Below are positions 26,916 to 48,001 of a stretch of DNA of 64,000 bases, in pieces (the first letter of the stretch is position 1; each line of letters starts with the position of its first letter). Origin of the DNA: a bacterium (GTDB lineage Bacteria > UBA8248); NCBI GenBank assembly GCA_963692865.2, contig OY843592.1, positions 2,496,001 to 2,560,000 on the forward strand, given 5' to 3'. The translations under genes were made by a program, and so were the position numbers. A model generated the notes under the pieces. The model was given only the letters and a program-made list of their open reading frames with translations, made no database searches and was not told the origin of the DNA.

Positions 26916-27183
26916 GGGGCCGTTGAAAAAGTCTCATAGAGGAAGCACGCTGAATTTCACTCCCCCCTTGAGGGTCGGGCATCCCGAGGGGAATGCCCGA
27001 TAACGAGGCAAGGGCGAAGCCCGCAGGCGAGTTGGTGGGGGGAGCTTTTTCTGTGGCATGTCCCCCCACCGAATCGGCCTTCGCCCAAGGGCTCGGCCTC
27101 TTCGACTCCCCCTCAAGGGGGGAGTGAAATTCAAAAGCGTGCGCGCGACCAAAATCGCTCTCCAAGACTTTTCCAACAACCCC
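26916..27183. mobile_element. Non-autonomous TIR element carrying a family-A long palindrome
   Basis: Ends GGGGCCGTTGAAAAAGTCT / AGACTTTTCCAACAACCCC; flanking direct repeat AAGA; internal 24-bp perfect IR 26951-27133. Confidence 0.7.
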
Positions 27184-27202
27184 AAGAGCGGGGCCGGATG
27201 CG

Positions 27203-27757
27203 TCATCCGCTTCCAGGGTAGCCCGGGGCCTGGAGGACGCGCGTCATCTGGTCCTGATGGAGAAAATCGTGCGTGCCCGAATAGACGATGCGATCGTAAA
27301 TATCGAGGTCGCCGTAGCGGAAATGCTCATGCGTGTAGCGGCTCATGTCGGCGCCGCGGTGCGGGAGTATCATCTGGTGAACCGCCTCCCTGTTGGGCAT
27401 GAGCCTGCCGATCATCTCGCGGAAATCGCCTTCGCCTTTCGGGATGAGGAAATCGGGCGCCGGAACGTGGCCTTGCTCCCTGCGCCTGAGCGCCTCCCGG
27501 CTCATCTTCTGCGGATTCTCAGGCGCCGTATCCCACGAACCGGACTCCTCCGCCTCGGCGAGCCTCTTCTCGATGAAGCGCGCGTAATAATTGTCCGTCA
27601 AGAGAATGTGCTCGAGATTCTGATGCAGGGACCATTCGCCGTCGGGAGGCCGCCAGTGCACGTGAGCGGGGTCGACCCCCTCCAGGAAGGAGATCAGGTT
27701 TCTCCTGTCTTTGAAAGCCGAGTCGAAGGCCTCGTCGAACATTTCTTCCGGAGTCAT
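27203..27757 (-). CDS. DinB superfamily protein
   Basis: RP..GEWS....LEH, H..YG.L, HD..H..Q histidine pattern. Confidence 0.85.
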   Translation of the reverse strand: MTPEEMFDEAFDSAFKDRRNLISFLEGVDPAHVHWRPPDGEWSLHQNLEHILLTDNYYARFIEKRLAEAEESGSWDTAPENPQKMSREALRRREQGHVPAPDFLIPKGEGDFREMIGRLMPNREAVHQMILPHRGADMSRYTHEHFRYGDLDIYDRIVYSGTHDFLHQDQMTRVLQAPGYPGSG

Positions 27758-27826
27758 TTTTCAGCTTCCTTCACATCGTGCCGGGTGAGGGGTTTCAAGC
27801 CTGATTGAAGGATTTACGAGCGGGTT

Positions 27827-28735
27827 TCAGGAATCCCTCCCGGCGCCGGGAGAGCGCACCTCGATGTCCAGCCATTCCTCCCACAGCTTGATGAGCGAGG
27901 CGTATTCTTCGGCCCCGTACCCTTTCTGAATCGCCATTTCGTATACGTGATGCGCAGCGCTTGCGATGAAGGTGGGAACGCGAAGTTCGCGTGCCAGTTC
28001 GAGGCACAGGTCGGAGTCTTTCGTCGCGAGGTCGGTCGTCATCCCCGGCGTGAACTCTCCCGGCAGGATGTGCTTTCTGAGCCTGTCCTCCACCTGGCGG
28101 CTGCGGCCCGAACTGACGGCGATGACGTCGCACAACAAATCGGGGTCGCCCCCCGCCGCGACGCCCAGGGCCATGGCCTCGGTCAACGCCGCGAGGTTCA
28201 CGTGCGAGAGCATGTTGTTTACGACCTTGAACAGCATGCCCATGCCGGATGCGCCGCAATGGAAGATGTTTTTTCCGAAATGCGAGAGCAGGGGCTTGAG
28301 CCTCTCGAACCCCGCCTCGCCGCCGCCCACCATCAGCGTGAGTGTGCCCGCATGCGCCCCCTGCACGCCTCCGCTTACGGCGGCGTCCATCAACTCGGCC
28401 CCTTGCGCTTTGACTAGGGGGGCCAGTTCCTGGATGAGGGAGGGGGAGACGGTGCTCGTCTCCGCCAGGAGCGCGCCGTCGCGCGCGCCCGCCAGAATTC
28501 CCTCCTCGCCCAGAATCACTTCGCGCGATATGTTCGGGTGCGGCAAAGACGTGAAAATAACCTCCGAGCGGGAGGCCACATCCGCCGGGTTGCGTCCTGC
28601 GCGCGCGCCCTTGTTCTCGGCCGCCAGAGTGGCTTCCTCTCGAACGTCGTAAGCCGTTACTTCATGACCGGCGCGAATGAGATGGGCGCAAATCTCGCTT
28701 CCCATCCTTCCCAGGCCGATGAAACCAAGCTCCAC
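27827..28735 (-). CDS. 3-hydroxyisobutyrate dehydrogenase / tartronate semialdehyde reductase family protein
   Basis: GFIGLGRMG, DAAVSGG...A..GTLT.MVGG, KVVNN, KD. Confidence 0.9.
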   Translation of the reverse strand: MELGFIGLGRMGSEICAHLIRAGHEVTAYDVREEATLAAENKGARAGRNPADVASRSEVIFTSLPHPNISREVILGEEGILAGARDGALLAETSTVSPSLIQELAPLVKAQGAELMDAAVSGGVQGAHAGTLTLMVGGGEAGFERLKPLLSHFGKNIFHCGASGMGMLFKVVNNMLSHVNLAALTEAMALGVAAGGDPDLLCDVIAVSSGRSRQVEDRLRKHILPGEFTPGMTTDLATKDSDLCLELARELRVPTFIASAAHHVYEMAIQKGYGAEEYASLIKLWEEWLDIEVRSPGAGRDS

Positions 28736-28787
28736 CTCTCGCCTCCTTGCCGGATGCGCCGTCTGCTCATCGTAAACGAATATAAAA

Positions 28788-28864
<77 letters not shown>

Positions 28865-28975
28865 ACCGAAAGAAAGGTTCCGCGCAAAAGGCCCGTGCGG
28901 GTGGGCCGGACCGCGCCGGGTTCTCGGCGAAAGAAATATCTCAGGCTATTTAGTAAGGCTTAAGCGTTGCTTTCG

Positions 28976-29662
28976 TCAAGGGCTTCGCGTCATCAAGGCC
29001 GGGGAAATGTATTTGTCTCGGAAACGGCGCTTTGAGGAAGAAGGGGAAATTCCGGGAAGGGGAGGAGGGGAGAAGAATTTGGGAGCCCGTGGGGCGCCGC
29101 GGTATATCGTGGTGACCCGGTGGCCTCCCGTTCTTGAAACCGTGGTGCGCGTCATCTCGCGCAACGGGACAACCTGTCCGCCGACCAGCAGACGCATTCG
29201 CCCTTTTTTGAGAATCACGGTGGTGAAGTGGCTGTAGGCTTTCAGGGCGAATTCCACTCCCTTGCCGCGCAACATTCCCGCAGGTGTTGTAATGCTCAAG
29301 CTCAGGTCGCATGTAGCCTGAGCGCACTTCACTGCGCCCCTGTTGAGTTTCGCCGTATACGCGCCGCCCCGCTTCATGCCGATGAACTCGAAGGAAGTAT
29401 TCGGCTCCACCACGAGCCGGCAACCCGGACGCCGCCGGAAATGGATGAGCGCACGCGAACTGGCGCTCGTGACGATGTGATCGCCCGGGAGCATCGAGCG
29501 TTTGCCTCTCAGGGAAACTTTTTTTCCGCGCGAGAAAACGATGTGTGGCTGACCGGATATGGCTCTCATTTCGACGAGGAATTCGTTTTCCGCGGCAGCG
29601 GATGAAACCACGCACAGGGGAAACAGATGCACCCCAAGAATCAATATCTTGAGCCAAGTCAT
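28976..29662 (-). CDS. FecR-domain exported protein
   Basis: Signal peptide; L.PGD.I.T...SRA, V.PNT, L.RG.V, I.TPAG...GKG.EF; Pro-rich tail. Confidence 0.65.
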   Translation of the reverse strand: MTWLKILILGVHLFPLCVVSSAAAENEFLVEMRAISGQPHIVFSRGKKVSLRGKRSMLPGDHIVTSASSRALIHFRRRPGCRLVVEPNTSFEFIGMKRGGAYTAKLNRGAVKCAQATCDLSLSITTPAGMLRGKGVEFALKAYSHFTTVILKKGRMRLLVGGQVVPLREMTRTTVSRTGGHRVTTIYRGAPRAPKFFSPPPLPGISPSSSKRRFRDKYISPALMTRSP

Positions 29663-29941
29663 GTCATCCCCGTGGAGAAGCGGCTAAGCGGCAGACCTCT
29701 CGGAATTATGTAAAGGATTTTTCAGGGATTTGCAAGTTCCCTAACTACCGGAAATATAATCCCGTCCCGAACTTCGGGCGATAGGGGTTGTCGGAAAATC
29801 CCTCTCCGCCTCATCCTGAGTAGCGGCGAAGCCGCGTATCGAAGGTCAATCGCGACCAATGCGGGAGCGATTGCCAGCAAGAAGGGGAGCGCTCCCCTCG
29901 ACAGACTCGGGCAAGCCCTTCGATACAAACGCTCCTTTCTC

Positions 29942-30173
29942 GGGGTTGTTGAAAAGTCCTTGCAGGTCAGTCGGTAATCCCGCCGTAGGTCAGACATATA
30001 TGTCTGACATATCATGCGGCCCTTTTCCGGAGAGGCGAAAAGGCTGGGCCGCATGATATGCGACCCCTGCAATCGAGATTACGCGCCGGAATGACGATCA
30101 AAACCGTCGAACCCTCCCTCCCCGGTCGGCTGCATTCGCCGAGTCGCGAAATCAGGTGTTTTTCAACATCCCT
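29942..30173. mobile_element. Inner TIR element inserted in a hairpin loop
   Basis: GGGGTTGTTGAAAA...TTTTCAACATCCCT, exact direct repeat TTCTC on both sides; cargo is a GTAG REP doublet. Confidence 0.75.
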
Positions 30174-30386
30174 TTCTCCGTCGCGTTTGACCTTCGGCGG
30201 CTACTCAGGGTGAGGGAAGAGGCGTCGTCGGTCTGGAGGGGTCGCAGACCAGGGTGTCGCTTTTACCCCCTTGACAGGGGGTAAAGGCAGCGCGCTCTCA
30301 CAAGGGGAGGGTGGAAGAAAAGCCCCCCTGACAAGGGGGGTTGGGGGGTTCGATGGGGGATAGAGGCGATTCCCCGTCCGGGCCGC

Positions 30387-30685
30387 TTACCTGGTTCGCT
30401 CGATGAGCGCGCGCAGGGCCATGCGGCTTTCCGCCTGCCGTCGATGAGTTCGCGCAGGGCGGTCATCGCCTCTGCATGCCTGCGTTCGGAGTCGATCATC
30501 GCTTTGTCGTGCTTGGCCATCGCCTCATCGTGCTTGCGCCGGGATTCGGCCATGGCTTCGTCGCGCTTGCGATTGGAGTCAGCGGCGCGCATGTCGGCGC
30601 CCCTGGCCATCTCGCGGAAGCCGTAGTAGATGAGCGCGAGGCCGCCGTAGGAGGCGATGAGGTTGAGGCGTTCGTACGCCGTCAT
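30387..30685 (-). pseudogene. Small membrane-anchored coiled-coil repeat protein with apparent 1-nt frameshift
   Basis: MTAYERLNLIASYGGLALIYYG, then (R/H)DEAMA-type repeats; 299 nt; adding 1 nt near 30438 yields ...ALRELIDGQAESRMALRALIERTR*. Confidence 0.55.
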
Positions 30686-30776
30686 GCGTATCTTCCCGGA
30701 GTCGGGTCGATCAGAATCCTCGCGTGCGTCAGCTACTGTAAAAAAGAAGCCGCCCTTCGCCAAACTCGACCGGGGA

Positions 30777-31306
30777 GGGGTTGTTGAAAAAGTTCCCCAA
30801 AAGGGTTGCTGACCCGCGCCAATCGAGAGTGTTCATCGTCATTCCGGTGTCGGAGCCGACCGATGAGGCAGGGTTCGACGGAATCCAGAAATGTCCCACG
30901 TGGGACATTTCACCTTGTTTTTTCGACTTTGCTCTTTGCCTTTCCCCGCACAAGTGGTGAGAACATGAAATACCGAATCGCATTGAGCCTGATCGGCTCT
31001 GGATTCCGGCATACGCCGGAATGACGGTGGTTTATCTCGGTCGATGAGAAAAAGAGAGCGGGCGGGCCGCTGCTTCGGACAGGTCGCGACCTATCCTTAC
31101 GGTTCCTTGATGGAATTTCACCCGTAGGGGCGGACCTGTGTGTCCGCCCCGTCTGTTGCCTCTCTCTTGTGCGCAATAGTTTCGGTCAACGATTGTATCT
31201 GCGGGCTGCAAGGATGACCGCATTACATACCGGGTGATGGGCGGACACACAGGTCCGCCCCTACGAAACCACTAACCTTTGAAATCGGGGGTTTTTCAAC
31301 AGTCCC
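30777..31306. mobile_element. TIR element carrying CGTC- and GTAG-type REP doublets
   Basis: GGGGTTGTTGAAAA...TTTTCAACAGTCCC; flanks GGGGA/GCGGA; perfect 26-bp inverted GTAG pair 31124-31149 / 31239-31264. Confidence 0.7.
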
Positions 31307-31350
31307 GCGGAGGGAGCGTTCGCTGCCCCGGCGAGGGTTTTTCGACAAGC

Positions 31351-31829
31351 CTAGATGAGCGGGCTGCGGCGCGCCGTGATGACGCCGGTCCTCATGCCCG
31401 CCGTGTGCAAACCGCCCCTCAGGCGGCCGTGTTCTATCTTCATGCACCTGTCCATGACGACCAGCAGGCCCGCCGCCCGCGCGCGTTCGGCCTCGGCCTC
31501 GTTCACCACTTCGAATTGCAGCCACAGCGATTTCGCGCCGACTGCTATCGCCTCGTCCACCACCTCCGCAATTTCATCCGGCCTGCGAAACACGTCCACC
31601 ACGTCGGGAGGGTCGGGTATCGAGGCAACGTCGGGGTAGGATTTCCGGCCCAGTACCTGCTCGTATCTCGGGTTCACCGGAATCACTTCGTAGCCCATCC
31701 TCTGGAGGTAGTACCCGACGAAATAGCTCGGCCTCGATTCGTTCGCCGACAGCCCCACCATCGCCACGCGGCGGTGGTTTCTGAGGATGCGGCGTATCGT
31801 GCGCGGGTTCTGGAATTCGGGAAATGTCA

Positions 31830-31830
<1 letters not shown>
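31351..31830 (-). CDS. CoA-binding protein (YccU-like)
   Basis: VAMVGLS....RPSY.V..YL...GY.VIPVNP, DVVDVFRR, LWLQ, VMDRC; start overlaps metY stop. Confidence 0.9.
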
Positions 31831-33682
<1,852 letters not shown>

Positions 33683-33731
33683 GTTTTCGTGATTCGTCAC
33701 GTCGTCAACCGACGGGGGAGGAGACAAGACT

Positions 33732-34169
33732 CTCCCCCTGAGTATCTGGCTTCCCGAGGGGAAAGCCGGACGAAGAGGCCGAGCGGTTTACGCGAAGGCC
33801 GATTCGGTGGGGGGACATGCCACTGAATAAAAATCTCCCCCCACCAACTCGCCCGCGGGCTTCGCCCTTGTCTCGTTGACTCCCCCTCAAAAGAAGCTGT
33901 TGAAAAACTCTTCTCCGCCTCATCCTGAGTAGCGGCGGGGCCGCGCATCGAAGGATGCCCGCTCGCCCCGGCGTGGGGCGTTCGATTCTCCTCGCCCTTC
34001 GACAGGCTCAGGACAGGCCCCTTCGATACGCCGCCTTCGGCGGCTACTCAGGGTGAGGAAAGAGGCGTTGGCGGTTTGCGGGAGTCGAAGACGGGGGCTT
34101 TTTCAACAACCCCCTCAAGGGGGGAGTGAAATTGAGTGCGCTCCTTCTGTGGACTTTTTCAACAACCCC
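33732..34169. repeat. Family-A long palindrome (reverse orientation) interrupted by a TIR element
   Basis: Homologous to 26951-27133 and 41972-42160; arm split at CCCCTCAA and resumed at 34111; extra TIR right end at 34156-34169. Confidence 0.7.
33893..34113. mobile_element. TIR element carrying family-B palindrome (CATCCTGAGTAGC...GCTACTCAGGGTG)
   Basis: GAAGCTGTTGAAAA...TTTTCAACAACCCC with CTCAA present on both flanks. Confidence 0.7.
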
Positions 34170-34275
34170 CTCCAGGAGGTGAATTCTCATCAGGAGCATT
34201 GATTTTATCTCCCCGGCTGCACCATAATCCCTATCGTGATGATCGCGCCCGCTCCACCACGCCGCATGAAAGACC

Positions 34276-35031
34276 ATGGCCCGGATACTTCTTTGCAACG
34301 ATGACGGCATCGATTCGGAAGGATTAAAGGCTCTCTACGCGGCTCTCGCCCCGCTGGGGGATTTGATCGTCGTCGCCCCGGACAGGGAGCAGAGCGCGGC
34401 GGGACACTCCCTGAGCCTGCATCGCCCCCTGCGCATCAATGAACGGGAGCATAACTGGTTCGCCGTGGACGGCACCCCAACCGACTGCGTGAATCTCGCC
34501 CTGAACGGCCTGTTCAAGAACGAACACCCCGACATGCTCGTCTCCGGCATCAACCGGGGCGGAAACATGGGCGACGACATCACCTACTCGGGAACCGTGG
34601 CCGCCGCGATGGAGGCCACCCTCCTGGGGCTTCCGGCGGTGGCGGTCTCCCTCGCCCACGAGGACGGGGAGACGCTCGATTTTGAGCTGGCGAAAAAAGT
34701 TGCGCGCGCCGCCGCGCGGGAAGTATTATCCCGTGGACTGGAGCCGGGCGTTCTTCTGAACGTCAACGTCCCGAACGTTTCTCCGCAAAAATGCCGGGGA
34801 GAGAAGGTCACCCGCCAGGGCAAGCGCGTTTACGAAGAAGCCATCGTAGAGAAAATCGACCCGCGCGGACGCGAGTATTACTGGATAGGGGGAGGCAGCC
34901 TCCTGTGGAAGGACGAGCCCGACACGGACTTCGAGGCCGTTTCGAACCACCAGGTTTCCATCACCCCCCTGCGGCTCGACCTCACGGACTACGACGCGAT
35001 GAAAGGGCTGGAATCTTGGCGTTTTCATTAA
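34276..35031 (+). CDS. surE: 5'/3'-nucleotidase SurE
   Basis: ILLCNDDG, VAPDREQS, DGTPTDCV, SGINRG.N.G.D..YSGTV.AA. Confidence 0.97.
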   Translation: MARILLCNDDGIDSEGLKALYAALAPLGDLIVVAPDREQSAAGHSLSLHRPLRINEREHNWFAVDGTPTDCVNLALNGLFKNEHPDMLVSGINRGGNMGDDITYSGTVAAAMEATLLGLPAVAVSLAHEDGETLDFELAKKVARAAAREVLSRGLEPGVLLNVNVPNVSPQKCRGEKVTRQGKRVYEEAIVEKIDPRGREYYWIGGGSLLWKDEPDTDFEAVSNHQVSITPLRLDLTDYDAMKGLESWRFH

Positions 35032-35696
35032 GCGGGAGAAGGGAGGACCGCCGGCGCCGCGCGCGCGAGGAGATGGTGGAGGGGCAAATCATCGCCCGCG
35101 GCATCGCGGACGCCCGCGTCGTCGAGGCCTTGCGCGAGGTGCCGAGGCACCATTTCGCGCCCGAGATATTCAGCGAAACCGCCTACGCCGACAAGGCCCT
35201 GCCCATCGGGCACGGGCAGACGATCTCACAGCCCTACATGGTGGCCGCCACGCTCGAGGCTCTGGAACTCAAGGGCGGGGAGAAGGTGCTTGAGATCGGG
35301 GCGGGTTCGGGTTACCTTACCGCGCTTTTGGGGAGGCTCGCGGGCTCCGTCCGCGCGATCGAGCGGGTGCCCGAACTGGCGGTGAGGGCCAGGGAGCGGC
35401 TTGATTCTTTCGGCCTGACGAATTATATGCTCTGGACGGCGGACGGCACCTACGGGTGGCCGGAGGAGGCGCCCTTCGACGTCATCGTGAGCGCGGCGTC
35501 GGCGCCCCGCGTCCCGGAGCCCTGGAAGCGGCAGATAGCCCCCGGCGGGCGCATCGTCATGCCCCTGGGGGAGGGGGAGAGGCAGACTCTCGTACGATAC
35601 CGCGTCTCCCGGACCGGCGAGATACTTGCCCCCGAGAAGTTGGTGAACTGCGTTTTCGTGAAACTGGTGGGAAAATACGGCTGGGAGAAACCATAA
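35016..35696 (+). CDS. pcm: Protein-L-isoaspartate O-methyltransferase
   Basis: [40 protein letters not shown]; start uncertain (TTG 35016 or ATG 35073). Confidence 0.93.
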
Positions 35697-35730
35697 AAAC
35701 GGCGATTCCGCCGTCTGAGGGATTGTGCGT

Positions 35731-35807
<77 letters not shown>

Positions 35808-36098
35808 TTTTCTCATCGCGTCCCATCAGTGGACTTGGGCGGTATGCGAATCTGACCCGGAGATTGCCGGGATCCCGATACTTAAAGTAATACTTCATGT
35901 TTATTCGAAACTATCAAATTAAATTTAATCCTGAAATATCCGATGGATGTCTTTACATACTTATTGAAATACATTGGATATATTGCCGCTCAATGCTAGG
36001 TAATATAAGTGTGAATTTCACGCCGACGGATTCACCTCGCCCCGTTTTCTCTGGCTGAAACGCAACTTGTTCCACGACGAAAAAAAGGAGTTCCGTGC

Positions 36099-36716
36099 GG
36101 GGTTGTGGAAAAGTCCGATTTCGAGAAATGGTGAATGCCATGGACAGGAAAAAGGAAAGACTTCCTCACTGGTGGGGAACGCAACGTTCTTGTGTCGGGG
36201 ACGCATACATGCGTCCCTGCTTTTTCGCCACTCGCCACGGGCCGCATGTATGCGGCCCCTGCAGAACCATCACGATCCGCAAGGGATTGTTGAAAAAATC
36301 CCCGATGAAGAAGGATTTGACACGAACGAGGAGCGGGCGATTGTGTGTTGGTAGCGCGACCTGTCCCTGCGGATTCGATTCAAAACGCGGGAGGTGTGTA
36401 GGGGCGTCGAACTTCCCTCTTCGGAAGTTCGACCGTGGCCGCCCGCATGGGAATATGTCTATCCCCATGGTTGCGCTTCGCATGGACAGGCACGGGGGCC
36501 TGTCCATGCAGCCCTTGCAGCTTTGCTCGTCATTCCGGCGCATGCCGGAATCCAGGGACTTTGCTTTTGTATTTGTTTTTTCGCTTTTTCGTTTTTCCTG
36601 GTCGTCCTGCGATTCGGTATCCCCGTCTGCTCTGGGTTCCGGCTTTCGCCGGAATGACGGTGGAACACTCCCGATTGGGGGCAATAACCCCTTAGGAAGA
36701 CTTCTTCAACAGCCCC
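36099..36716. repeat. REP mosaic with two TIR left ends and one right end
   Basis: Left ends at 36099 and 36283, right end TTCAACAGCCCC ending 36716; GTAG and CGTC doublets; 36528-36716 homologous to 40216-40429; no clear flanking direct repeat. Confidence 0.7.
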
Positions 36717-39588: not shown

Positions 39589-39613
39589 GGCGCAGACGCG
39601 GACCCCCGGAGAG

Positions 39614-40429
39614 GGGGTTGTCGGAAAAGCCTCCAGGGGGGAAGGGAATCCCGATCATCGAATTCTTCACCGCCAGGACAGGCCCCTGTGCCTGTCCTGG
39701 CGAAGCACAACCGCGGGGACAGACATCTTCGATACGGGCGACCGCGGGGGCCGCCCCTACGTTACAAACCGCGATGGGTATATATTCTCTTCCCGGTCGG
39801 CTCCACAACGCCGAGCCACGAAACCGGCTGATTTCCCGCGTCCCTCGATACGACGCTTACGCGCCTACTCGGGATGAGGGTGTTTTAGTTTCCTCACCCT
39901 GAGTAGCCGCCGGAGGTCAAACGCGACTGATGAGGGGGTGTTGAAAAACCCCTTGCGAGCCGGCCGGGATCTCACCGTAGGGGCCGCATATCATGCGGCC
40001 CTGCCTTGTCGCCTTCACAATACGGGTCGCATGATATGTCAGACATATATGTCTGACCTGCCAAACTCTGCGAAACGAAACGCAGGGGCGGATCTGTGTG
40101 TCCGCCCGACCCCGGAACAGGGTTTTTCAACAGCCCCGATGAAGGAGCGTTTGTATCGAAGGGCGTCCCCGGACAGGCGCGGGGGCCTGTCCCTGCGGGT
40201 GGATATGGTTTTGATCGTCATTCCGGTGTCAAACCGACCAAGGCGGGAGGGTTCGACGGAATCCGGGGACTTTGTTTTTGAATTTGTCTTTTCGCTTATC
40301 GTTTTTCTTGGTCGTCTTGCGATTCGATATTCTCGTCCGTTCTGGATTCCGGCATTCGCCGGAATGACGGTGAACGCTCTCGATTGGGGAGGGGCGACAC
40401 CCCCTTTGGGAGACTTTTCCGACAACCCC
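39614..40429. mobile_element. Outer composite TIR element (816 bp)
   Basis: 21-bp terminal IR with one mismatch (GGGGTTGTCGGAAAAG[C/T]CTCC); flanks CGGAGAG/GGGTGAG; contains REPs and an inner element. Confidence 0.75.
39934..40137. mobile_element. Inner TIR element inserted in a hairpin loop
   Basis: GGGGGTGTTGAAAA...TTTTCAACAGCCCC with exact direct repeat GATGA on both sides. Confidence 0.8.
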
Positions 40430-40557
40430 GGGTGAGTTGGAGCGCACGTTGATGCGCTCACGAATTGCGTTCCGGCGAGGCGAGGGCTTCTGCGCGACTT
40501 GACGAGACGCGCCCGCCCGCTACAATCAGGAAGAATCAATCGCCCTTGGATTATCGG

Positions 40558-41007
40558 ATGCGAACCATCATCGGCGTCATCGGCGATTCCGATCCGGCTC
40601 CCGAAACGGCCGACCTGGCCGAGGAGGCGGGCGGCGAGATTGCGCGCGCGGGCGCAGTCCTCGTGTGCGGGGGGCTGGGAGGCGTCATGCAGGCCGCGGC
40701 GCGCGGGGCGAAGGAAGCGGGCGGCCTCACGGTGGGCGTCCTGCCCTCGTACGACGCCGGGTCCGCCAACGCGTTCATCGACATCCCTATCGTCACCGGA
40801 ATGGGCCACGCCCGGAACGTCGTCATCGCGGCGACGGCCCACGCGCTCATCGCCATGGCGGGCGCGTACGGCACGCTTTCTGAGATCGCCATCGGCCTCA
40901 AGCTCGGCAAGCGCGTCGTCTCTCTGGGGCGCGACGCAAGCCCCGCGGGAGTCGTCCCGGCGGCGAGCGCCCGCGAGGCCGTGCGGATGGCCCTGGGCGG
41001 CTCATGA
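40558..41007 (+). CDS. LOG/SLOG superfamily protein (TIGR00725-like)
   Basis: IGVIG, LVCGGLGGVM.AA.RGA...GG.TVG.LP, TGMG.ARN, G.YGTLSEI. Confidence 0.88.
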   Translation: MRTIIGVIGDSDPAPETADLAEEAGGEIARAGAVLVCGGLGGVMQAAARGAKEAGGLTVGVLPSYDAGSANAFIDIPIVTGMGHARNVVIAATAHALIAMAGAYGTLSEIAIGLKLGKRVVSLGRDASPAGVVPAASAREAVRMALGGS

Positions 41008-41072
41008 GGGACGCAGTGGACAGGAAGTCATCACGCATCTCGCCCGTTCCGGGTCCGCGGGGCCGGCGCGCC

Positions 41073-41903
41073 ATGCGGCGAAGCGCGTTCGTCTTGTTCC
41101 TCTGTTTCCTTACCGGTTGCGCGCTCGTCGCACCACCCCTGCCGACGCCCAAGCGAACTCACCGCGATGCGGGCGGGGTCCACCACACCGTAAAACGCGG
41201 CGAGAACCTCTGGCGCATCGGGCGCGCCTATGGGGTGGGGGTCGAACAAATCGCCGTCCTGAACGGCATCGACAATCCGGATCGTCTGGAAATCGGCCAG
41301 CGGCTCTTCATACCGGGCGCCAGGAGCAAACACCTCGTACGGAAGAACGTCAGCGCCACTCCGCCCGAACGACGCCCCCGCTGGGCGGCTCCGCGCCCCC
41401 GCAAGTCGCCGCCGCGCCGGAAGGCTTCCGTAAGGCCGACCCGGAAATCCAGCCCGAAGCCGAAAAGCGCCGCCCGGAAGCACCGCGTGAACAAGAGGAG
41501 GACGCCGCACCGCAGGGCGTACGGCAAAAGGCCCAAATTCTCCTGGCCCCTGCGGGGACGCCTGATTCGCCGCTTCAAGGGGAGCGGCAGCCGCAAGGCG
41601 GACGGCATCCTCATCGCCGCCCGCGAGCGCGCCCAGGTCCGGGCCGCCGCTCCCGGCCGCGTCATCTATTCCGATTTCGGCCCCGGAAACCTGGGCCGCC
41701 TCATCATCCTGCGCCACCACGGGGGGGAGTACCACTCCGTTTACGCGAACGTCGCCGAGAATCTCGTGCGCAAGGGGCAGCAGGTTTCGCGCGGCGCGCC
41801 CATCGCGCTCACGGGCCGCACGCCGCGCTTCCGGACCGCGCGCCTTCACTTCGAGATCCGCCATCGCACGCGCCCCAGGAACCCGCTCTCCTATTTGCCG
41901 TAG
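41073..41903 (+). CDS. nlpD: LysM + M23 lipoprotein (NlpD-like amidase activator)
   Basis: Lipobox LTGC, LysM HTVKRGENL..I, Arg/Lys/Pro linker, degenerate M23 (DGILI, YAN, LHFEIR); alternative start 41004. Confidence 0.8.
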   Translation: MRRSAFVLFLCFLTGCALVAPPLPTPKRTHRDAGGVHHTVKRGENLWRIGRAYGVGVEQIAVLNGIDNPDRLEIGQRLFIPGARSKHLVRKNVSATPPERRPRWAAPRPRKSPPRRKASVRPTRKSSPKPKSAARKHRVNKRRTPHRRAYGKRPKFSWPLRGRLIRRFKGSGSRKADGILIAARERAQVRAAAPGRVIYSDFGPGNLGRLIILRHHGGEYHSVYANVAENLVRKGQQVSRGAPIALTGRTPRFRTARLHFEIRHRTRPRNPLSYLP

Positions 41904-41905
41904 AA

Positions 41906-42209
41906 GGGGTTGTTAAAAAAGTCCCGATTTCATGGTTCGGTTTTTGGAATCAACAGATGAGAGAGAAGAACCACTCCCCCCTTGAGGGGGAGTCAACGAG
42001 GCAAGGGCGAAGCCCGCAGGCGAGTTGGTGGGGGGTAGAATTCGGAATGGCGATCAAACACGTTTTACCCCCACCGAATCGGCCTTCGCAAAAATCGCTC
42101 GGCCTCTTCGTCGGGCTTTCCCCTCGGGAAGCCCGACCCTCAAGGGGGAGTGAATTTCAAAAGAGTGCGTGTAACCAAATTCACTCTACAGGGGTTTTTC
42201 AACAGATCC
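41906..42209. mobile_element. TIR element carrying a family-A palindrome
   Basis: GGGGTTGTTAAAAA...TTTTCAACAGATCC; flanks TAGAA/TGGAA, the left one including the nlpD stop codon. Confidence 0.7.
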
Positions 42210-42365
42210 TGGAATTCATGGGTTATCGTGATGACATGCCGTGATGAGGATGCTATGTAGGGTTCTCTCGTCCGCCGGATTCGAAACCGGGGTAGATGCC
42301 GCACCACACACGGCACGGAACGCCGTGAGGCGGCGAAAACGCTTTCATCCGCGAGGGGTAGATTC

Positions 42366-42893
42366 ATGTCCGACATCAGCCGGCTTCTGGCGCACGTTCG
42401 CGACGTGCCCGACTTCCCGAAAGAGGGCATTCTGTTCAAGGACATCACGCCCATGCTCCAGAACGCCGAGGCCTTTCAGCAGGCGGTGGACATGGCGGCG
42501 GAGCCCTTGATGGGGGAGGGGATCGACGTCGTTCTGGGCGTCGAGGCGCGCGGCTTCATCATCGGAGCGCCCCTGGCCTACAAACTCGGCGCGGGCTTCG
42601 CCCTGGTGCGAAAGGCGGGGAAGCTCCCCTGGGAGAAGACCCGGGCCGCCTATGAACTCGAATACGGCGCGGACGCGCTCGAAATCCACAAGGACGCCGT
42701 CGCGCCCGGCATGAAGGTGCTGATCGCAGACGACGTGCTCGCCACGGGCGGCACCGCCGCCGCCTGCATATCGCTCGTGGAATCGCTCGGCGGGAGCATC
42801 CACGGCTTTTCATTCCTCATCGAGCTCGCGTTCCTGAACGGACGGGAAAAACTCGCTCCACACCACGTTCGCTCTCTGATAACATACGACTGA
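42366..42893 (+). CDS. apt: Adenine phosphoribosyltransferase
   Basis: PDFPK.GILFKDIT, EARGF, RK.GKLP, YELEYG, DDVLATGGT. Confidence 0.97.
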   Translation: MSDISRLLAHVRDVPDFPKEGILFKDITPMLQNAEAFQQAVDMAAEPLMGEGIDVVLGVEARGFIIGAPLAYKLGAGFALVRKAGKLPWEKTRAAYELEYGADALEIHKDAVAPGMKVLIADDVLATGGTAAACISLVESLGGSIHGFSFLIELAFLNGREKLAPHHVRSLITYD

Positions 42894-42918
42894 CGCGCCT
42901 CGCCGCGCGCGGCTCCTG

Positions 42919-42995
42919 GCCCCCGTAGCTCAGCAGGATAGAGCGCCGGATTCCTAATCCGTAGGCCGCAGGTTCGAATCCTGCCGGGGGTACCA
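42919..42995 (+). tRNA. tRNA-Arg (CCT)
   Basis: GCCCCCGTAGCTCAGCAGGATAGAGCG-CCGGA-TT CCT AA-TCCGT...GGTTCGAATCC...CGGGGGTACCA. Confidence 0.96.
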
Positions 42996-43157
42996 GAAAC
43001 CTAACTCCTCACTGTTGGTATTTCCCAAGAACTAGGCCTCCTGTGATTTGAAAATCAATTCTCCTTGACAGCCTAACTGGCCTTTTCTATATCATCCAAT
43101 CGACCTAGGAATTACATGTAATTCCTTTTTTCATACCTTTACACGAGGAAATTTCTG

Positions 43158-43652
43158 ATGCGTATTTTGCTCACTGTTTGTTGTTTGTTAATTGCCTCCG
43201 GCTGCGCGACCTTTGTTTCCGGCACCTCACAATCCATCTTGGTCGATGTCATTAACGCAAAAGGTGCATCATGCACTGGTATCGACAAGCGAGGCAGACG
43301 ATATCACTGGGTCAATACTCCTAGCGCGACGACGGTTCATAAAGGAGACGGACCAATGGTTTTAACGTGTGAGAAAAAAGGTTTCAAAAAAACAACGCAC
43401 TCATTCGATGAAACTTTAGTCGCCTCTACTTTGGGAAACATCATTCTCGGTGGAGGCATCGGGATTTTGGTCGACGCCGCAAGTGGCGCTGCGCAGGAAT
43501 ATCCGACCAAAGTAAGTGTCATCATGGAGCCTGAGGATTCGGCATCCGATAGCCTCAAAAAGCAGTACCAGGAGTTGAAAAAAGAATTGGCCGAAAAAAT
43601 GAAGAAGGAAAAAGAGGCAGAGAAGAAAGAAATCTCTGAGGCAGGAAAATAA
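43158..43652 (+). CDS. Hypothetical lipoprotein
   Basis: Lipobox ASGC, GNIILGGGIG..VD..SGA...YP motif, charged C-terminal helix; SD GAGG; lower GC than neighbours. Confidence 0.75.
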   Translation: MRILLTVCCLLIASGCATFVSGTSQSILVDVINAKGASCTGIDKRGRRYHWVNTPSATTVHKGDGPMVLTCEKKGFKKTTHSFDETLVASTLGNIILGGGIGILVDAASGAAQEYPTKVSVIMEPEDSASDSLKKQYQELKKELAEKMKKEKEAEKKEISEAGK

Positions 43653-43696
43653 GAGCCTGATTTTCGAGATTCATGTGAAGAAATTGTTTTAGTTCC

Positions 43697-43978
43697 TCAA
43701 GTCCACCAGTCGAGCGCGTAGGAGCCGGCGAAGAGGAGGCCGCCGAGGCCCATGAGGCCGACGGCGGGTTTCGCGGCGCCGATGGAGAGCGCCCCCAGGC
43801 CGCCGCACAGCATCAAGGCGCCCGTGCCCCACATGACCTTCACGACGATCGCCTTGGCGTCGATGACGTTCAATGGCCGCTCGTCGCCGCTGTTCGCCTC
43901 GATGGTTTCCCCGCAAGCGGGGCAGGTTTCGTCGTCTGGGGTTTCGGCTCCGCATTCAGGGCACCGTGTCTCGGCCAT
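43697..43978 (-). CDS. Small zinc-ribbon membrane protein
   Basis: CPECG-x8-CPACG followed by two hydrophobic helices; SD AGGAAGG. Confidence 0.65.
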   Translation of the reverse strand: MAETRCPECGAETPDDETCPACGETIEANSGDERPLNVIDAKAIVVKVMWGTGALMLCGGLGALSIGAAKPAVGLMGLGGLLFAGSYALDWWT

Positions 43979-44206
43979 GGCGTCTTCCTTCCTCGAAACA
44001 GGCGGGTGGATGAGAGGCATTCGTTATGCGTGCGGCATTTTCCCACAACGCCTGTGCATAGGAAACGCGCCGGAAATTTTTTCGCGTGAATATGCTTGCG
44101 CCACTGCCGCCGCACCCTCTCTCTCGCTTTCCGCTCATGCGCGCCGTGTGGGATGATGGCCGGAATTCATCCCGCGCGCCCAGGAAATGAATGAGGAGCA
44201 ACTGTC

Positions 44207-45124
44207 GTGCAATATCATATCGACCCCGAGCGCGTCGTCGTAACGGAACCCGTGCCTGGTTCGGAATACCCGGTTCACCTGATGTACGTCGAACTGCTGG
44301 ACGGCGTATATGCGCCCATAGGGCTGCGGACGCCTGCAGGCGCTGCGCCGCACCCCACCGTGCTGCTCGGGCGGGGAAACGGCGGCGGCGGAATGGCCTG
44401 GGTGCGCGAGGCGACCCGGAACATGGGCTGCATCCAGGAGCGCCTGCTGGAGGCGGGTTACGCCTGCGCCTGGCTGAGATACCGCGCGGAGGTGGAACTC
44501 GGCTACAACAACGGCGGCCGCCTCGTCGAGGACGTGCGCCAGGGCCGCCAGCTTCTGAACCGCTCGCCGCTCGAGTATGAAGACGAAATCGCGATCATCG
44601 AATACATGAAGACGCTGCCCGAGGTGGACGGGGAGCGCATCGGCCTGATGGGCGTGAGCCACGCGGGCGAGATGATACTCAAGATAACGTCCGAATACGG
44701 CGGCGCGCGCGCCTGCGTGGCCTGCGAGCCGGCCTCTCATGAATTTCTCGATCTCGCGCCGGACGATACCGCCTTCGTGAACGAGGAGACGAAGCTCCGA
44801 AACATCGAGGGCATGATGATGCGCGAGGTCGAGAAGGTGCGGGCGCGCATCAATAAGGAACTCGCGCTCGAAAGGATGAGGAGCATTCAAACGCCGATAC
44901 TCATCATGGGCAGGGATGCGGATCACCTCCAGGGCGTCTTCCGCGCCACGTTCGATTTGATGGTCGAGGCGGGCGCCGACGTCGAGTGGACCTCATACGA
45001 TCACCCGGTGCACGGCTACATCTTTCCCGAGCGGGGAGCGGACGGGGAGTACGCCGTCGACGCGGCGCAGGAGGCGGCGATCTCGAAGTGCATCGCCTAC
45101 TTGGACAAACACATGAAGAACTGA
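44207..45124 (+). CDS. Alpha/beta hydrolase (dienelactone hydrolase / S9-like)
   Basis: VD.ERIGLMGVSHAG elbow, PILIMGRD.D, HG near C-terminus; SD GAGGAG. Confidence 0.75.
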   Translation: MQYHIDPERVVVTEPVPGSEYPVHLMYVELLDGVYAPIGLRTPAGAAPHPTVLLGRGNGGGGMAWVREATRNMGCIQERLLEAGYACAWLRYRAEVELGYNNGGRLVEDVRQGRQLLNRSPLEYEDEIAIIEYMKTLPEVDGERIGLMGVSHAGEMILKITSEYGGARACVACEPASHEFLDLAPDDTAFVNEETKLRNIEGMMMREVEKVRARINKELALERMRSIQTPILIMGRDADHLQGVFRATFDLMVEAGADVEWTSYDHPVHGYIFPERGADGEYAVDAAQEAAISKCIAYLDKHMKN

Positions 45125-45202
45125 GCTATACTATTCTTGAAAGACGCGCCGGGAGCCCGAGGCGTTCCCGAACATCCGCCGCGAAGACGGACACCGAAAC
45201 CC

Positions 45203-46663
45203 ATGGAATCCCGGACGAGAATTTTCTCCTGCCTTGTGGATGACTTCCTGAAAACCGGTGCGCTGATAGTTCCGGCTTCGGAGAATCTCAGGCTGGTCAT
45301 TTCCCGAATGGCGGAGAAGAACGCAAACTGCGTTCTCGCGACGGATGAGGAGGGCAGGCTCACCGGCATCTTTACGGAAAAAGACGTTACGCGCCGCGTC
45401 GCCCTGCGGTGCGACGGCTCGGAGACGATAGGGCAGGTGATGACGTCCCGCGTCTGGTCCGCGAAACAGGGGGACTACCTCTATCACACCATCGCGAGGA
45501 TGCGCCGCCTCGGCCACCGCCACATGCCCGTGGTGGATGAGGCGAACCGCCCACTCGGCCTGCTGGATCTGCAGGACGCCATGGCCGTGGCGGCCGCGAA
45601 TGTGGTGGAGCACATCGACGCGCTCACGCAGGTCCCGGAACTCTACGGCCTGCAGGAGGTGAAAGCCGTGCAGGCGGTCGTGGCGCAGGAACTGCTCGAA
45701 GACAACCTCCCCGCGCCGGAGATTCAGGCGCTGCTCACGCACGTGAACAACGACATCTACCGGCAGGTGGTCGAGAAAGTGACGGGGACCATCGAAAAGG
45801 CGGGCGGGGGCGCGCCGCCCGTGCGGTACGCCGTGATCGTCATGGGCTCGGGCGGGCGGGGGGAGAACTTCATCAACCCGGATCAGGACAACGGCATCAT
45901 CCTCGAAGACTATCCCGTGGAGCGGCACAACGAAGTCAACGACTATTTCATCCGCTTCTCGGAACTGCTGACCTGGAATCTCGAAGCCATCGGCTTTCCC
46001 CTGTGCGACGGCAACGTGATGGCCACGAACCCGCTTTGGCGCAAATCAATCTCCGAGTGGAAGCGCCAGACCCTGCGCTGGTTCCAGAAGAGGAGCACGT
46101 TCCAGGTTCAGTTGAGCGACGTCTTCTTCGATTTCGACATCGCCTGCGGGGATCTCTCCCTGGGACAAGAGTTGCGGAATCACATCACGGGGTTCGTCCA
46201 GAAAGAACCCGCCGTGCTCCAGGCGATGTTCCAGACCGAGGCCGACAGGCACGTCGCTCTCGGCCTGTTCGGCATCCTGCGCGCGGAACGAGTGGGAGAG
46301 GGCCTGCCGCAGGCGATAAACCTCAAGCACGGGGGCATCCTCCCCCTTGTCGGGGCCGTGCGGCTTCTCGCCCTGAAAGAGGGCATCGAGGCGACCTCCA
46401 CCTACGAGCGCATCCGCCTGCTGCACGAAGCGGGGGTTTTCAGCGACGATGAGGCGGACGACTACACCGCCGCCATCGAGCATATGACTTATCTGCTCCT
46501 GCGCCAGCAGTTGAGGGACTTCAGGCGTATCAGGAAGGCGACGCGCTACGTGAGGAAATCGGCGATGTCGCGAAGGGAGAAACAGGTACTCAAGATGTCT
46601 TTCAAGGCGGTTCGCTCGCTCAAGGAGCGGGTGCGTTCGGAGTTCACCGGCGAGATTCTTTGA
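45203..46663 (+). CDS. CBS-pair plus DUF294 nucleotidyltransferase-like protein
   Basis: GIFTEKD and HMPVVD CBS motifs; MGSGGRGE....DQDNG; C.GNVMATNP.W; INLK..G..P.V..VR. Confidence 0.88.
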   Translation: MESRTRIFSCLVDDFLKTGALIVPASENLRLVISRMAEKNANCVLATDEEGRLTGIFTEKDVTRRVALRCDGSETIGQVMTSRVWSAKQGDYLYHTIARMRRLGHRHMPVVDEANRPLGLLDLQDAMAVAAANVVEHIDALTQVPELYGLQEVKAVQAVVAQELLEDNLPAPEIQALLTHVNNDIYRQVVEKVTGTIEKAGGGAPPVRYAVIVMGSGGRGENFINPDQDNGIILEDYPVERHNEVNDYFIRFSELLTWNLEAIGFPLCDGNVMATNPLWRKSISEWKRQTLRWFQKRSTFQVQLSDVFFDFDIACGDLSLGQELRNHITGFVQKEPAVLQAMFQTEADRHVALGLFGILRAERVGEGLPQAINLKHGGILPLVGAVRLLALKEGIEATSTYERIRLLHEAGVFSDDEADDYTAAIEHMTYLLLRQQLRDFRRIRKATRYVRKSAMSRREKQVLKMSFKAVRSLKERVRSEFTGEIL

Positions 46664-46690
46664 GAAACCCTTCCTTGAGAATCACGATAC

Positions 46691-46941
46691 GGAGTTGCTG
46701 AAAAACTCCCTCAAGGGGAGATGACGGCGCGCATTCGGGGCTGTTGAAAAAACCCGGGACAGCGACCGTGGGGACAGGCCTCTGTGCCTGTCCGATAGCC
46801 TGACAAAGGACAACCACGGAGGGTTGTCCCTACGGGGCCGTTGCCCCCCTGACAAGGGATGGTTGCGGGTTTCGTCCTCGCTCCGCTAACGGGTTCCCCG
46901 AGAGAAGAAATCCGGCCCCCAACGGCTTTTTCAACAGTCTC
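46691..46941. mobile_element. TIR element carrying a GTAG REP doublet
   Basis: GGAGTTGCTGAAAA...TTTTCAACAGTCTC, direct repeat ATAC; second internal left end at 46737. Confidence 0.65.
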
Positions 46942-47554
46942 ATACGGGCGCCTTGAACCGGTCGAACACCCGCCCGAAGCGCCAGGCGTAGAACTCCACG
47001 CTCTCGTACAGGCCCGCGCGGTTATAGGGCTCCTCAGCCCAGAACGCCCGCGCCGACTCGATGTCGGGAAAATCGAGCAAGAGCACGCTGCCGTTCCTGG
47101 TCTCGCCGTCATCGGTGCCCAGGGGGCCGCGCGCCATCACCGAGTCGCCGTGCTCGGTCAGGTAGGCGACGTGCTCTTCATGCAGGGTCTTTCGGACCGC
47201 GCCGCCGTCCGCCTTGTCCAGGGCGTGGACGTAGAACTGGAGGTTTCCCTCTTTTCGCGGACAGTCGCGCCAGGAGTAGGGCACGGTGGCGCGCCAGCGC
47301 CGAATCGAGGGCCGCTCCTGAATCCCCTCGATGATGAACGGCTCGTTCGCCACGTGCGCCTCCGCCGCGGCGCGGTCGGCCAAGTCGAGAATACGGAAAC
47401 TGCCCAGTTCGCGCTCGCCGTCGTCGGTCAGGAACGGGCCCGCGAAGCGGGTGACGCCGTCGAAGCTCTTGAGATAATCGAGATGCGCCTTGCGGTGCAC
47501 GTCCCTCAGGGAGGCCGCCTCGGGCCTGTCGTAAATCTTGATGACGAATTCCAC
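46940..47554 (-). CDS. Tandem two-domain YciI family protein
   Basis: Two R....H..YL...(A/R)GP...DDGE...GS....D....A......EP(F/Y) repeats; GTG start after AAGGA. Confidence 0.85.
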   Translation of the reverse strand: MEFVIKIYDRPEAASLRDVHRKAHLDYLKSFDGVTRFAGPFLTDDGERELGSFRILDLADRAAAEAHVANEPFIIEGIQERPSIRRWRATVPYSWRDCPRKEGNLQFYVHALDKADGGAVRKTLHEEHVAYLTEHGDSVMARGPLGTDDGETRNGSVLLLDFPDIESARAFWAEEPYNRAGLYESVEFYAWRFGRVFDRFKAPV

Positions 47555-47676
47555 GAATGATTTCCTTCTGATGAGAAGTGAAAAGAGTCTGTCGTGAAGT
47601 ATCAGGTATCTGTGATGACGCCCGGATTCTATGTGCGGATGCGCCAGGCCGCAACGGACGCAGCGGGGCGCATTGC

Positions 47677-48001
47677 GGAGTTGTTGAGAAGTCCCGAAAA
47701 GGAGGGTTGGGGGGGTCTGTAGGGGTCGCATACGGGATTTTTGAAAAATCCTAAAGGGAGAGCGCGCTGAATTTCACTCCCCCCTTGAGGGGGTCGGGCT
47801 TCCCGAGGGGAAAGCCCGACAGAGGCCGAGCGGTTTGTGCGAAGGCCGATGTGGTGGGGGGACATGCCACGGAAAAAGCTCCCCCCACCGGCGCGACTTC
47901 GGACTACGTCCTCGTCTTGCCGACTCCCCCTCAAGGGGGGAGTGAACTTCAAAAGCGTGCGCGCAACCCAAAATCGCTTCCTGGACTTTCCCAACAACCC
48001 C
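47677..48001. mobile_element. TIR element(s) carrying a family-A palindrome with inverted interior
   Basis: Left ends at 47677 and 47734, right end TTCCCAACAACCCC; 47768-47951 homologous to 26951-27133. Confidence 0.65.

Follow-up and report, generated by a model that had tools for sequence, protein, structure and literature searches.

How did small hairpins that share GTC and GAC feet come to lie inside intergenic repeats that are unrelated to each other? The question is raised by a 64,000-nucleotide (nt) stretch of the chromosome of an uncultured marine bacterium (C1:2496001-2560000, hereafter the window), part of an assembly, G000, of 4.15 Mb in 8 contigs with 61% G+C and a completeness of 97.4%. 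An earlier note on this DNA had drawn attention to ten hairpins of 20-31 nt and proposed that each replaces about 7 nt of a host repeat. All ten hairpins are present between 26974 and 47820 of the window. We find that the 7-nt replacement pattern is real, that it is specific to the GTC..GAC class of hairpins, and that it holds in about nine host contexts.

The replacement was examined with a flank test on 632 multi-copy GTC..GAC hairpin instances, in which their exact 10-nt flanks were searched for at a distance of 0-16 nt from each other throughout the genome and on both strands. The alternative to the hairpin was 7 nt long in 161 of 177 flank/insert combinations, a count dominated by two host families with about nine distinct host contexts beneath it; the others were 8 nt (13), 6 nt (2) and 2 nt (1) long. 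The replacement is thus stricter than the earlier note could show. For hairpins with a perfect stem, the alternative was 7 nt in 135/140. As a control, 700 hairpins sampled from 1895 other multi-copy hairpins yielded 10 short alternatives, and five of these ten belonged to a GTT variant of the 28-nt family, again with 7 nt. These results bear out the proposal that host bases are substituted without target duplication: the hairpins are discrete and stand for a fixed 7 nt of unrelated repeats.

Since two hosts dominate the counts, the 7-nt argument rests on the number of contexts. In the contexts below, the replaced 7-mer stands between its host flanks. The flank test gave GAGG/GGGAGTC/M2, where M2 is a hairpin of about 33 nt, and the same host occurs with the replaced bases shifted by 2 nt, as GAGGGG/GAGTCAC, GAGTCAT or GAGTCGA/AGAGG. 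The 2-nt register shift noted earlier for the hairpin at 47793 is therefore genuine, with two registers in one host. Flank comparison gave GTAG/GGGCCGC/ATATCA, GTAGG/GGCGGAC/CTGTGT, GTAGGGGC/GGCCCCC/CGTGG, GGCACR/GGGGCCC/GCCCCT, CCGGY/GAAAGCC/GGAATC and AGGGAG/GGTTTGC/GGAATC (the last 7-mer also given as GCAAACC), and a comparison of aligned rows gave GAGGG/GGCTGTT/GAAAAA (with GGCTGTT or GGTTGTT as the 7-mer). The replacement of 6 nt that had been suggested at 36406 needs correction, as the commonest empty form there has the 7 nt GGCCCCC. Depending on the case, the replaced bases are the 5' arm, the 3' arm, or the loop and part of an arm of the host hairpin. As this position is variable, the length is not dictated by how the host hairpin is built. 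Most of the 7-mers, like the hairpin itself, begin with G and end with C (G-N5-C), and the event can equally be read as an N5 exchanged between a retained G and a retained C.

The direction of the exchange can be read from the host. A host repeat needs the 7-mer to form its own hairpin, which makes the empty form the original one and means that the filled form is not an ancestral repeat consensus. In the host called H1, for example, GGGAGTC closes the local hairpin CACTCCCCCC-TTGA-GGGGGGAGT, which has 93 copies. We compared the assembly with 22 other species of the genus and 18 genomes outside it. The empty H1 form was found in 16/22 species, the exact 28-nt hairpin in 15/22 and P20, a perfect 20-nt palindrome, in 16/22; six species have neither the hosts nor the hairpins. 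Of the two states, the empty one has the wider distribution in the genus. The counts of the empty H1 form and the exact 28-nt hairpin were 60 and 0 in G008, 92 and 1 in G022, 111 and 42 in G000, and 125 and 58 in G013, and P20 is most abundant in G000, with 133 sites. The exact 28-nt hairpin was found in 0/18 of the genomes outside the genus. The hairpin families are confined to one genus.

H1 and M2 are parts of a composite repeat of about 180 nt that consists of two facing halves, with 110-210 nt between the inner anchors. Among 71 composites, 38 were mixed, 22 had both halves empty and 11 had both filled, where independence would give 34.6, 23.8 and 12.5, respectively. Whether one half is filled or empty does not depend on the state of the other half. 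In addition, subtypes of M2 occur in filled and empty halves alike; GAAGAGGCC, for instance, was found in 11 empty and 21 filled ones.

The earlier note had described the arms as GTCRRRY and RYYYGAC, with three degenerate copies. Degenerate arms do exist, but the copies with an imperfect arm number five: the hairpin at 26974 ends in GAT, that at 33744 starts with ATC, and those at 30849, 33271 and 40228 are mismatched or contain a G-T pair. The other five, at 29989, 36406, 40038, 42110 and 47793, have perfect arms. A strict motif of GTCRRRY, 5-20 nt and a complementary RYYYGAC occurs 5 times in the window, compared with a mean of 0.095 (maximum 1) in 200 dinucleotide shuffles, and 197 times on C1, compared with 5 in the reversed C1 sequence. 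With 5-30 nt allowed between the arms, the 203 matches in the genome are not spread in length but concentrate at 20 nt (124), 28 nt (40) and 31 nt (19). Even so, the GTCRRRY consensus does not cover every copy, since the 28-nt family includes the compensated arm variants GTCTGGC..GCCAGAC, GTTGGGC..GCCCAAC, GTCGGTC..GACCGAC and GTCGGCC..GGCCGAC. The RRRY rule is therefore too strict, and the trait common to the families is a GTC foot facing a GAC foot.

The hairpins form at least three discrete families, scattered over about 300 intergenic sites without cassette arrays or cassette open reading frames. P20, GTCRGACATATATGTCYGAC, has 170 copies with at most 2 mismatches. The 28-nt hairpin, GTCGGGCTTCCCGAGGGGAAAGCCCGAC, has 92 copies with at most 4 mismatches and relatives of 26, 29 and 30 nt, and the tip of this 26-30-nt group is CCCGAGG..GGAA. 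The third type is 30-31 nt long with the loop CCGACC..GGAGG. It is included in a wider family of hairpins of about 27 nt, in which an unchanging purine-rich loop, CGACC..GGAG, is borne on highly diverse, compensated stems that vary freely; the majority of these stems lack GTC..GAC feet. This family has about 1050 loose motif matches, of which 128 have stems of at least 6 bp; examples are at 30849-30879 and 33271-33300 of the window.

The hosts of these hairpins are older repeats of three kinds: repetitive extragenic palindromes (REPs) tagged with GTAG, dRS3-like REPs tagged with CGTC, and the H1-M2 composite. They belong to a mosaic of small repeats that is dense throughout the genome. In most of its 170 rows, P20 comes after GTAG or a variant of it that differs by one base, and the sequence that follows P20 is ATATCATGCGRCCC or CTAC. 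Its uninterrupted host, GTAG-GGGYCGCATATCATGCGRCCC, is a GTAG-tagged REP with 159 copies, and P20 occurs in three different GTAG REP families. The 31-nt type lies in CGTCATTCCGG..GGAATCC, and its uninterrupted host, CGTC-ATTCCGGC-GAAA-GCCGGAAT-CCA, has the layout of the CGTC-1 REP. In this layout, GTCATTCCGG was found 441 times, with CGAAAGCC directly after it in 175 cases; ATTCCGGCGAAAGCCGGAAT occurs 148 times in the dRS3-like host, and the tail is GGAATCCA. The 28-nt hairpin lies between CACTCCCCCCTTGAGG and M2, which is followed by GGTGGGGGG. M2 is present at about 180 places in the genome, including 27002-27042, 41995-42035 and 47821-47861 of the window. Its stem keeps a constant tandem G-A/A-G while the flanking pairs covary (GAAGAGGCC/GGCCGATTC, GATGAAGCC/GGCTGAATC and GGTGAAGCC/GGCTGAACC). 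From these sequences M2 looks like a conserved structure; it had no match in Rfam.

Within the window, P20 is found twice. At 29989-30008 it follows GTAG (29985-29988) and replaces GGGCCGC, which forms the 5' arm in a GTAG-tagged REP; the rest of that REP, ATATCATGCGGCCC, is at 30009-30022. At 40038-40057 it precedes CTGC and replaces the GTAG-proximal arm of a REP, with GGGTCGCATGATAT at 40024-40037. A further REP, tagged with GTAG, carries the 28-nt hairpin GTCGAACTTCCC..GGAAGTTCGAC at 36406-36433 in place of GGCCCCC, between GTAGGGGC (36398-36405) and CGTGGCCGCCC (36434-36444). On the + strand, dRS3-like CGTC-tagged REPs hold two hairpins of the third type. The one at 30849-30879 is 31 nt long with the loop CCGACC..GG and replaces GAAAGCC between CGTCATTCCGGT (30837-30848) and GGAATCC (30880-30886), and the one at 40228-40257 is the 30-nt GTCAAACCGACC..GGGTTCGAC between the same neighbours (40216-40227 and 40258-40264). 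The 30-nt hairpin GTCGGACCCGAC..GGGTTCGAC at 33271-33300 (+ strand) has the same CCGACC loop type, and the genome flank search gave no empty counterpart of its flanks.

The remaining four hairpins belong to H1-M2 contexts. The 28-nt hairpin at 26974-27001 (+ strand), a variant GTCGGGCATCCC..GCCCGAT, is flanked on its 5' side by CACTCCCCCCTTGAGG (26958-26973) and on its 3' side by the M2 hairpin AACGAGGC..GCGAGTT; the degenerate 28-nt hairpin ATCTGGC..GCCGGAC at 33744-33771 (+ strand) has a decayed context of the left part of H1 and M2. A whole composite at 41972-42152 is empty on the left, where the H1 hairpin with the 7-mer GGGAGTC at 41988-41994 is followed by M2, and filled on the right, where the 28-nt hairpin at 42110-42137 is followed by CCTCAAGGGGGAGTG. 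The intergenic region around it measures 308 nt, compared with 0-19 nt at the corresponding place in eight related species that have both anchors. A second composite at 47775-47944 has the opposite state: its left half is filled by the 28-nt hairpin at 47793-47820, in the register shifted by 2 nt, and its right half is empty with the 7-mer GACTCCC at 47922-47928 on the + strand. An Rfam scan of the window found three tRNAs only. Separately, the cumulative GC skew of the chromosome peaks at about 44000-50000 of the window (about 2.54 Mb on C1) and has its minimum at 0.71 Mb, and the window probably spans the replication terminus. Positions 2000-23000 of the window have a G+C of 0.47-0.54, compared with 0.61 for the genome, and may be a foreign or otherwise atypical segment.

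To what extent do known repeats resemble these hairpins? The available text of Di Nocera et al. 2013 (PMC3733652) equates the CGTC-1 REP with Neisseria dRS3, and the host CGTCATTCCGGCGAAAGCCGGAATCCA matches it in its tag, its 8-bp stem starting with AT, its 4-nt loop and its CCA tail; the other hosts carry GTAG. CGTC-tagged REPs are defined by an unpaired CGTC (or TGTC/CCTC) tag at one end, a stem of 8-9 bp that begins with A-T pairs, a loop of 4-5 nt and a CCA tail. Among the hairpins themselves, the 31-nt type is preceded by T or C (TGTC/CGTC), with TGTCGGAG 14 times, CGTCGGAG 5 times and others, and most 28-nt rows are followed by G, so that the bottom strand reads CGTC; yet in both the GTC pairs with GAC. 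They have no CCA tail, their stems of 7-12 bp begin with G-C, and their loops of 0-4 nt (20-nt type) and at least 13 nt (31-nt type) depart from the range that defines these REPs. The same available text (PMC3733652) reports CGTC REPs without a known transposase and REPs nested in other palindromes, and describes no fixed 7-nt replacement of a host by tagged REPs. Mosaics built from tagged REPs, the bacterial interspersed mosaic elements (BIMEs) and Neisserial intergenic mosaic elements (NIMEs), are described in the available part of Bentley 2007 (PMC1797815).

Other systems share single traits with the hairpins. P20 has the GTAG head beside a palindrome that marks REPINs mobilized by REP-associated tyrosine transposases (RAYTs), and G000 has no RAYT gene (0 matches to PF01797). 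As in miniature inverted-repeat transposable elements (MITEs), inverted arms are present, but 7 host nt are lost and not duplicated, and the only multi-copy insertion sequence (IS) has other ends. A further parallel lies in the small dispersed repeats (SDRs) of Nostocaceae: according to papers that cite Elhai et al. 2008, the 21-nt SDR5 is thought to be mobile without a known enzyme and is reportedly inserted between two bases of HIP1. According to those citing papers, SDR-like repeats have reportedly not been found outside Nostocaceae. Both cases, as far as those papers describe SDRs, involve a very small repeat that is set into another short one at an exactly defined point; the hairpins differ in that the host loses 7 bases, and in the phylum and the sequences. 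The hairpins are REP-like or SDR-like nested mini-elements with a 7-nt rule.

Longer elements with the same 7-nt ends and a recombinase inside had been suggested as a source of the hairpins, and one IS does occupy the hairpin position. G000 has six identical copies of a 1467-bp IS with a DEDD (IS110-family) transposase, for which PF01548 was matched 6 times. One copy is at C1:11681-13147, the others are near 834, 1781, 1825, 1958 and 3896 kb of C1, and the IS is the only repeat of at least 500 bp with more than four copies in the genome. The sequence common to all six starts with (AA)GATGGGGTAATCGGGT and ends with ACCCGATTAGAG(AA). It contains a subterminal inverted repeat of 12 bp, TAATCGGGTNGG, matched at 11/12 positions, beyond which lie GATGGGG (7 nt) on the left and GAG (3 nt) on the right, and its gene is preceded by 116 nt and followed by 310 nt of non-coding sequence. 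The IS1111 marks given in the available part of Siddiquee et al. 2024 (PMC11187229) are a DEDD transposase, subterminal repeats of 11-13 bp, extensions of 7 bp and 3 bp, a longer downstream non-coding region and a specific target, and the 1467-bp IS shows all of them.

Four of the six copies have GTCGGCC and GGCCGAC as their outer neighbours and occupy precisely the place of the hairpin in a composite, on the loop side of a 29-nt hairpin; the outer flanks of the other two are unrelated. Joined together, the flanks of the four form GTCGGCCTTCCCGAGGAGGAAAGGCCGAC, one base off an intact 29-nt hairpin at C1 415007. A copy in G017 lies in the same hairpin, and copies in G013 and G018 lie elsewhere with loosely similar flanks. 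Because the ends of the IS are inside the hairpin and other copies differ in their flanks, the hairpin is the target of the IS and does not form its ends. The IS thus partly matches the suggested longer element, in its position but not in its ends, and the reading of the hairpins as excision footprints finds no support. No other longer elements bounded by hairpin halves were found, as the half-sites pair at 20-31 nt and not around genes. The 3' non-coding region of the IS holds CTTCCGCCTCGG (C1:12881-12892), the complement of CCGAGGCGGAAG, which corresponds to CCGAGGCGGAA(A)G of the target hairpin, and CCGAGGCGGAAG matches the loop of the intact hairpin at C1 415007 save for one extra A in that loop; judged from this complementarity, CTTCCGCCTCGG is a possible seekRNA guide. 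Rfam gave no match on the IS locus. The available part of PMC11187229 reports that IS1111 family members likewise target REPs and attC hairpins, and here too the target is a folded repeat. The hairpin subfamily GTCGGCC..GGCCGAC is secondarily a landing site of an IS1111-type IS, which explains the IS as a user of one hairpin subfamily and does not explain the origin of the 7-nt replacement.

We turn to how the pattern may have arisen. In the account that we favour, and to which we would give about an even chance, a specific replacement reaction by some enzyme was followed by amplification and gene conversion. The GTC...GAC hairpins would form a separate tier of very small REP-like palindromic cassettes, with at least three sequence families, written into the older GTAG-tagged REPs, dRS3-like CGTC-tagged REPs and H1-M2 composites. 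Each event would remove a fixed 7 nt of the host, usually G-N5-C, and put in the hairpin without target duplication. The first events may have been the work of a trans-acting enzyme cutting twice, 7 nt apart, for which the nearest known chemistry would be a staggered cut like that of tyrosine recombinases, tolerating unlike overlaps. Later spread would be due to amplification of the host repeats and gene conversion among copies. A narrower form of this account, that the swap of a folded-repeat G-N5-C for a 20-31-nt hairpin is an undescribed cut-and-replace recombination by an enzyme outside the families searched, is put forward tentatively, as we consider it clearly short of even.

Several observations weigh against such an enzyme-driven exchange. 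G000 has 0 matches to PF01797 (Y1 transposase), no TnpB and no RVT_1 reverse transcriptase. Weak Y1 matches occur in 11/22 relatives and are unrelated to the hairpin load, and neither Y1 transposase nor TnpB nor reverse transcriptase tracks that load across the genus. The best match to the integron integrase TIGR02249 reached 84.7 bits against a cut-off of 265. A replication-strand bias was absent in 8 repeat families, which argues against lagging-strand single-strand transposition. Hairpin type is largely tied to the host, the 28-nt hairpin to H1 and the 31-nt type to dRS3-like REPs, and the orientation of the 28-nt hairpin relative to its host is fixed in nearly all 92 rows. In two contexts, the alternating 8 nt resemble the hairpin's own 3' arm (GAATTGAC vs GAATCGAC; GGTTCGAC); in both, filled and alternative forms differ by a piece of 23 nt that begins with an inverted copy of adjacent host bases, and either an insertion with inverted copying or a deletion between short direct repeats could have produced it. 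G000 has 11 tyrosine-recombinase matches. At about 205, 3259, 3429 and 3807 kb of C1 there are loci with two tyrosine-recombinase genes about 1.2 kb apart, which suggests copies of a multi-recombinase element. G015, a member of the genus with an 8-Mb genome of twice the usual size, has 85 reverse-transcriptase matches, many of them interrupted by internal stops, and lacks both the hairpins and their host repeats.

Movement of the hairpins has not been caught between strains, which is a further point against. Contigs C2-C8 are 97-98% identical to C1 and represent second haplotypes of parts of it, with about 167 kb aligned; the assembly is therefore a mix of two strains, and we compared the repeats of these haplotypes with those of C1. 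Hairpin gain or loss was seen at 0/8 loci in these pairs, all being filled in both, while larger modules did change between the same haplotypes. A 152-nt piece in a dRS3-like CGTC REP, flanked by the direct repeat ATTCCGGCA, is present at C5:28263-28415 and not at C1:344526-344534, and corresponds to the dRS3-RS-dRS3 units in NIMEs of Neisseria. The haplotypes also differ by a 56-nt module with GGGGTTGTTGAAAAA at its flanks, and a whole cassette is swapped between GGGYTGTTGAAAAA and TTTTTCAACARCCC. The orthologous intergenic regions of 12 related species have turned over their repeats almost completely, so that they offered no clean pair of a filled and an empty copy with matching inner modules. 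The orthologous composites L076 and L092 agree in their outer arms and flanks, but every part between these is different. Gene conversion, or else the swapping of cassettes, must therefore be common, and a small number of old events could have been distributed or reshuffled in this way. Public contigs from 4 runs of one study, compared with 28000-47999 of the window and breaking at repeats, gave no evidence of filled and empty states at one site; the hairpin at 36406 is bridged unchanged by contigs of runs X22, X23 and X24, and the other joints came from other repeat copies. Hairpin activity is not detectable at 2-3% divergence. The earlier suggestion of an ultra-short mobile unit thus stands in that these are discrete units with a fixed 7-nt exchange, but their mobility is inferred and not shown.

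The hairpins could instead lack a dedicated mobility altogether. Each chimera would have arisen once, by template switching or illegitimate recombination, and spread by amplification and conversion, and the hairpins would be alternative modules of a BIME- or NIME-like mosaic, not elements. We regard this as doubtful, although it is the main rival and several observations fit it: module turnover between haplotypes and species is frequent with hairpin-level change unseen, hairpin type goes with host type and the orientation is fixed, and chimeric hairpins are common, such as those joining the left part of H1 to the right arm of the TTTTTCAACAG hairpin (46 rows), so that junctions inside hairpins are a general trait of the mosaic. 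What it leaves unexplained is the loss of exactly 7 nt in every one of about nine contexts, with one host affected in two registers, the GTC..GAC feet of unrelated hairpin sequences, and the presence of P20 in three REP families. Selection for structure is an unlikely source of the pattern. The hairpins would then be kept as switches of a transcribed or single-stranded composite and not by mobility. The folds predicted for a single strand do differ, the empty half forming two neighbouring hairpins, the local H1 hairpin and M2, and the filled half a three-way junction in which a C-run pairs with a distal G-run and the hairpin and M2 are branches; in dRS3-like hosts, the inserted hairpin is predicted to lengthen the host stem. 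The compensated double changes in the arms, the covariation of M2 stems around their constant tandem G-A, and the constant CGACC..GGAG loop on freely varying stems in the ~27-nt family would also agree with such a role. However, compensated arms arise in DNA palindromes without selection too, no Rfam family was matched, the fold z-scores of composite halves are modest (-1.7 to -2.1), and neither the fixed 7 nt nor the lineage-specific rise of filled forms would be explained.

Two recombinase systems have also to be weighed as makers of the hairpins. It is quite unlikely that the IS1111-type recombinase with its guide RNA makes them as footprints, mini-derivatives or by-products. Its being the sole repeat of its size and copy number, the placing of 4/6 copies and the G017 copy inside GTCGGCCTTCCCGAGGAGGAAAGGCCGAC at the exact hairpin position, and a hairpin at C1 3606989 whose loop carries the final 8-13 nt from the right end of the IS all speak for a connection; the last is probably a remnant of imprecise IS loss. 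Yet no copy of the IS is present in G011, which carries 54 exact 28-nt hairpins, and at an identity of at least 89% the IS was detected in no more than 5/22 other species, compared with 15-16 that have hairpins, so that the IS cannot account for the hairpins. P20 is unlike the IS ends, and the IS1111 family recombines without loss of target bases. A still more remote origin, which we consider very improbable, would be an integron-like system with a tyrosine recombinase, in which the hairpins would serve as attC-like sites or as mini-cassettes. The likeness lies in imperfect hairpins with a 7-nt, purine/pyrimidine-patterned foot, GTCRRRY resembling the integron core GTTRRRY, and the 28-nt hairpin can be divided into 11 + 6 + 11, as core sites of tyrosine recombinases typically are. 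The analogy to integron core sites does not hold up, as the core motifs stand in the reverse of the attC order, RYYYAAC ... GTTRRRY, GTC stands for GTT, no integrase exceeds the cut-off, and the intergenic sites lack cassettes.

The origin and movement of REPs is a long-standing question, and the available text of PMC3733652 describes CGTC-tagged REPs without a known transposase. The loss of 7 nt in about nine contexts, the GTC..GAC feet and the independent states of composite halves make up a countable signature that any mechanism must reproduce. If an enzyme is behind it, short defined cassettes would be inserted while a fixed tract is deleted; we know of no described bacterial recombinase that does this. 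If there is no enzyme, the pattern would show the extent to which gene conversion alone structures a repeat mosaic. The IS described here also shows that, in nature, an IS1111-type element can have a micro-hairpin as its target. Should the replacement reaction be true, the hairpins would be among the smallest mobile DNA units and the first such system outside cyanobacteria.

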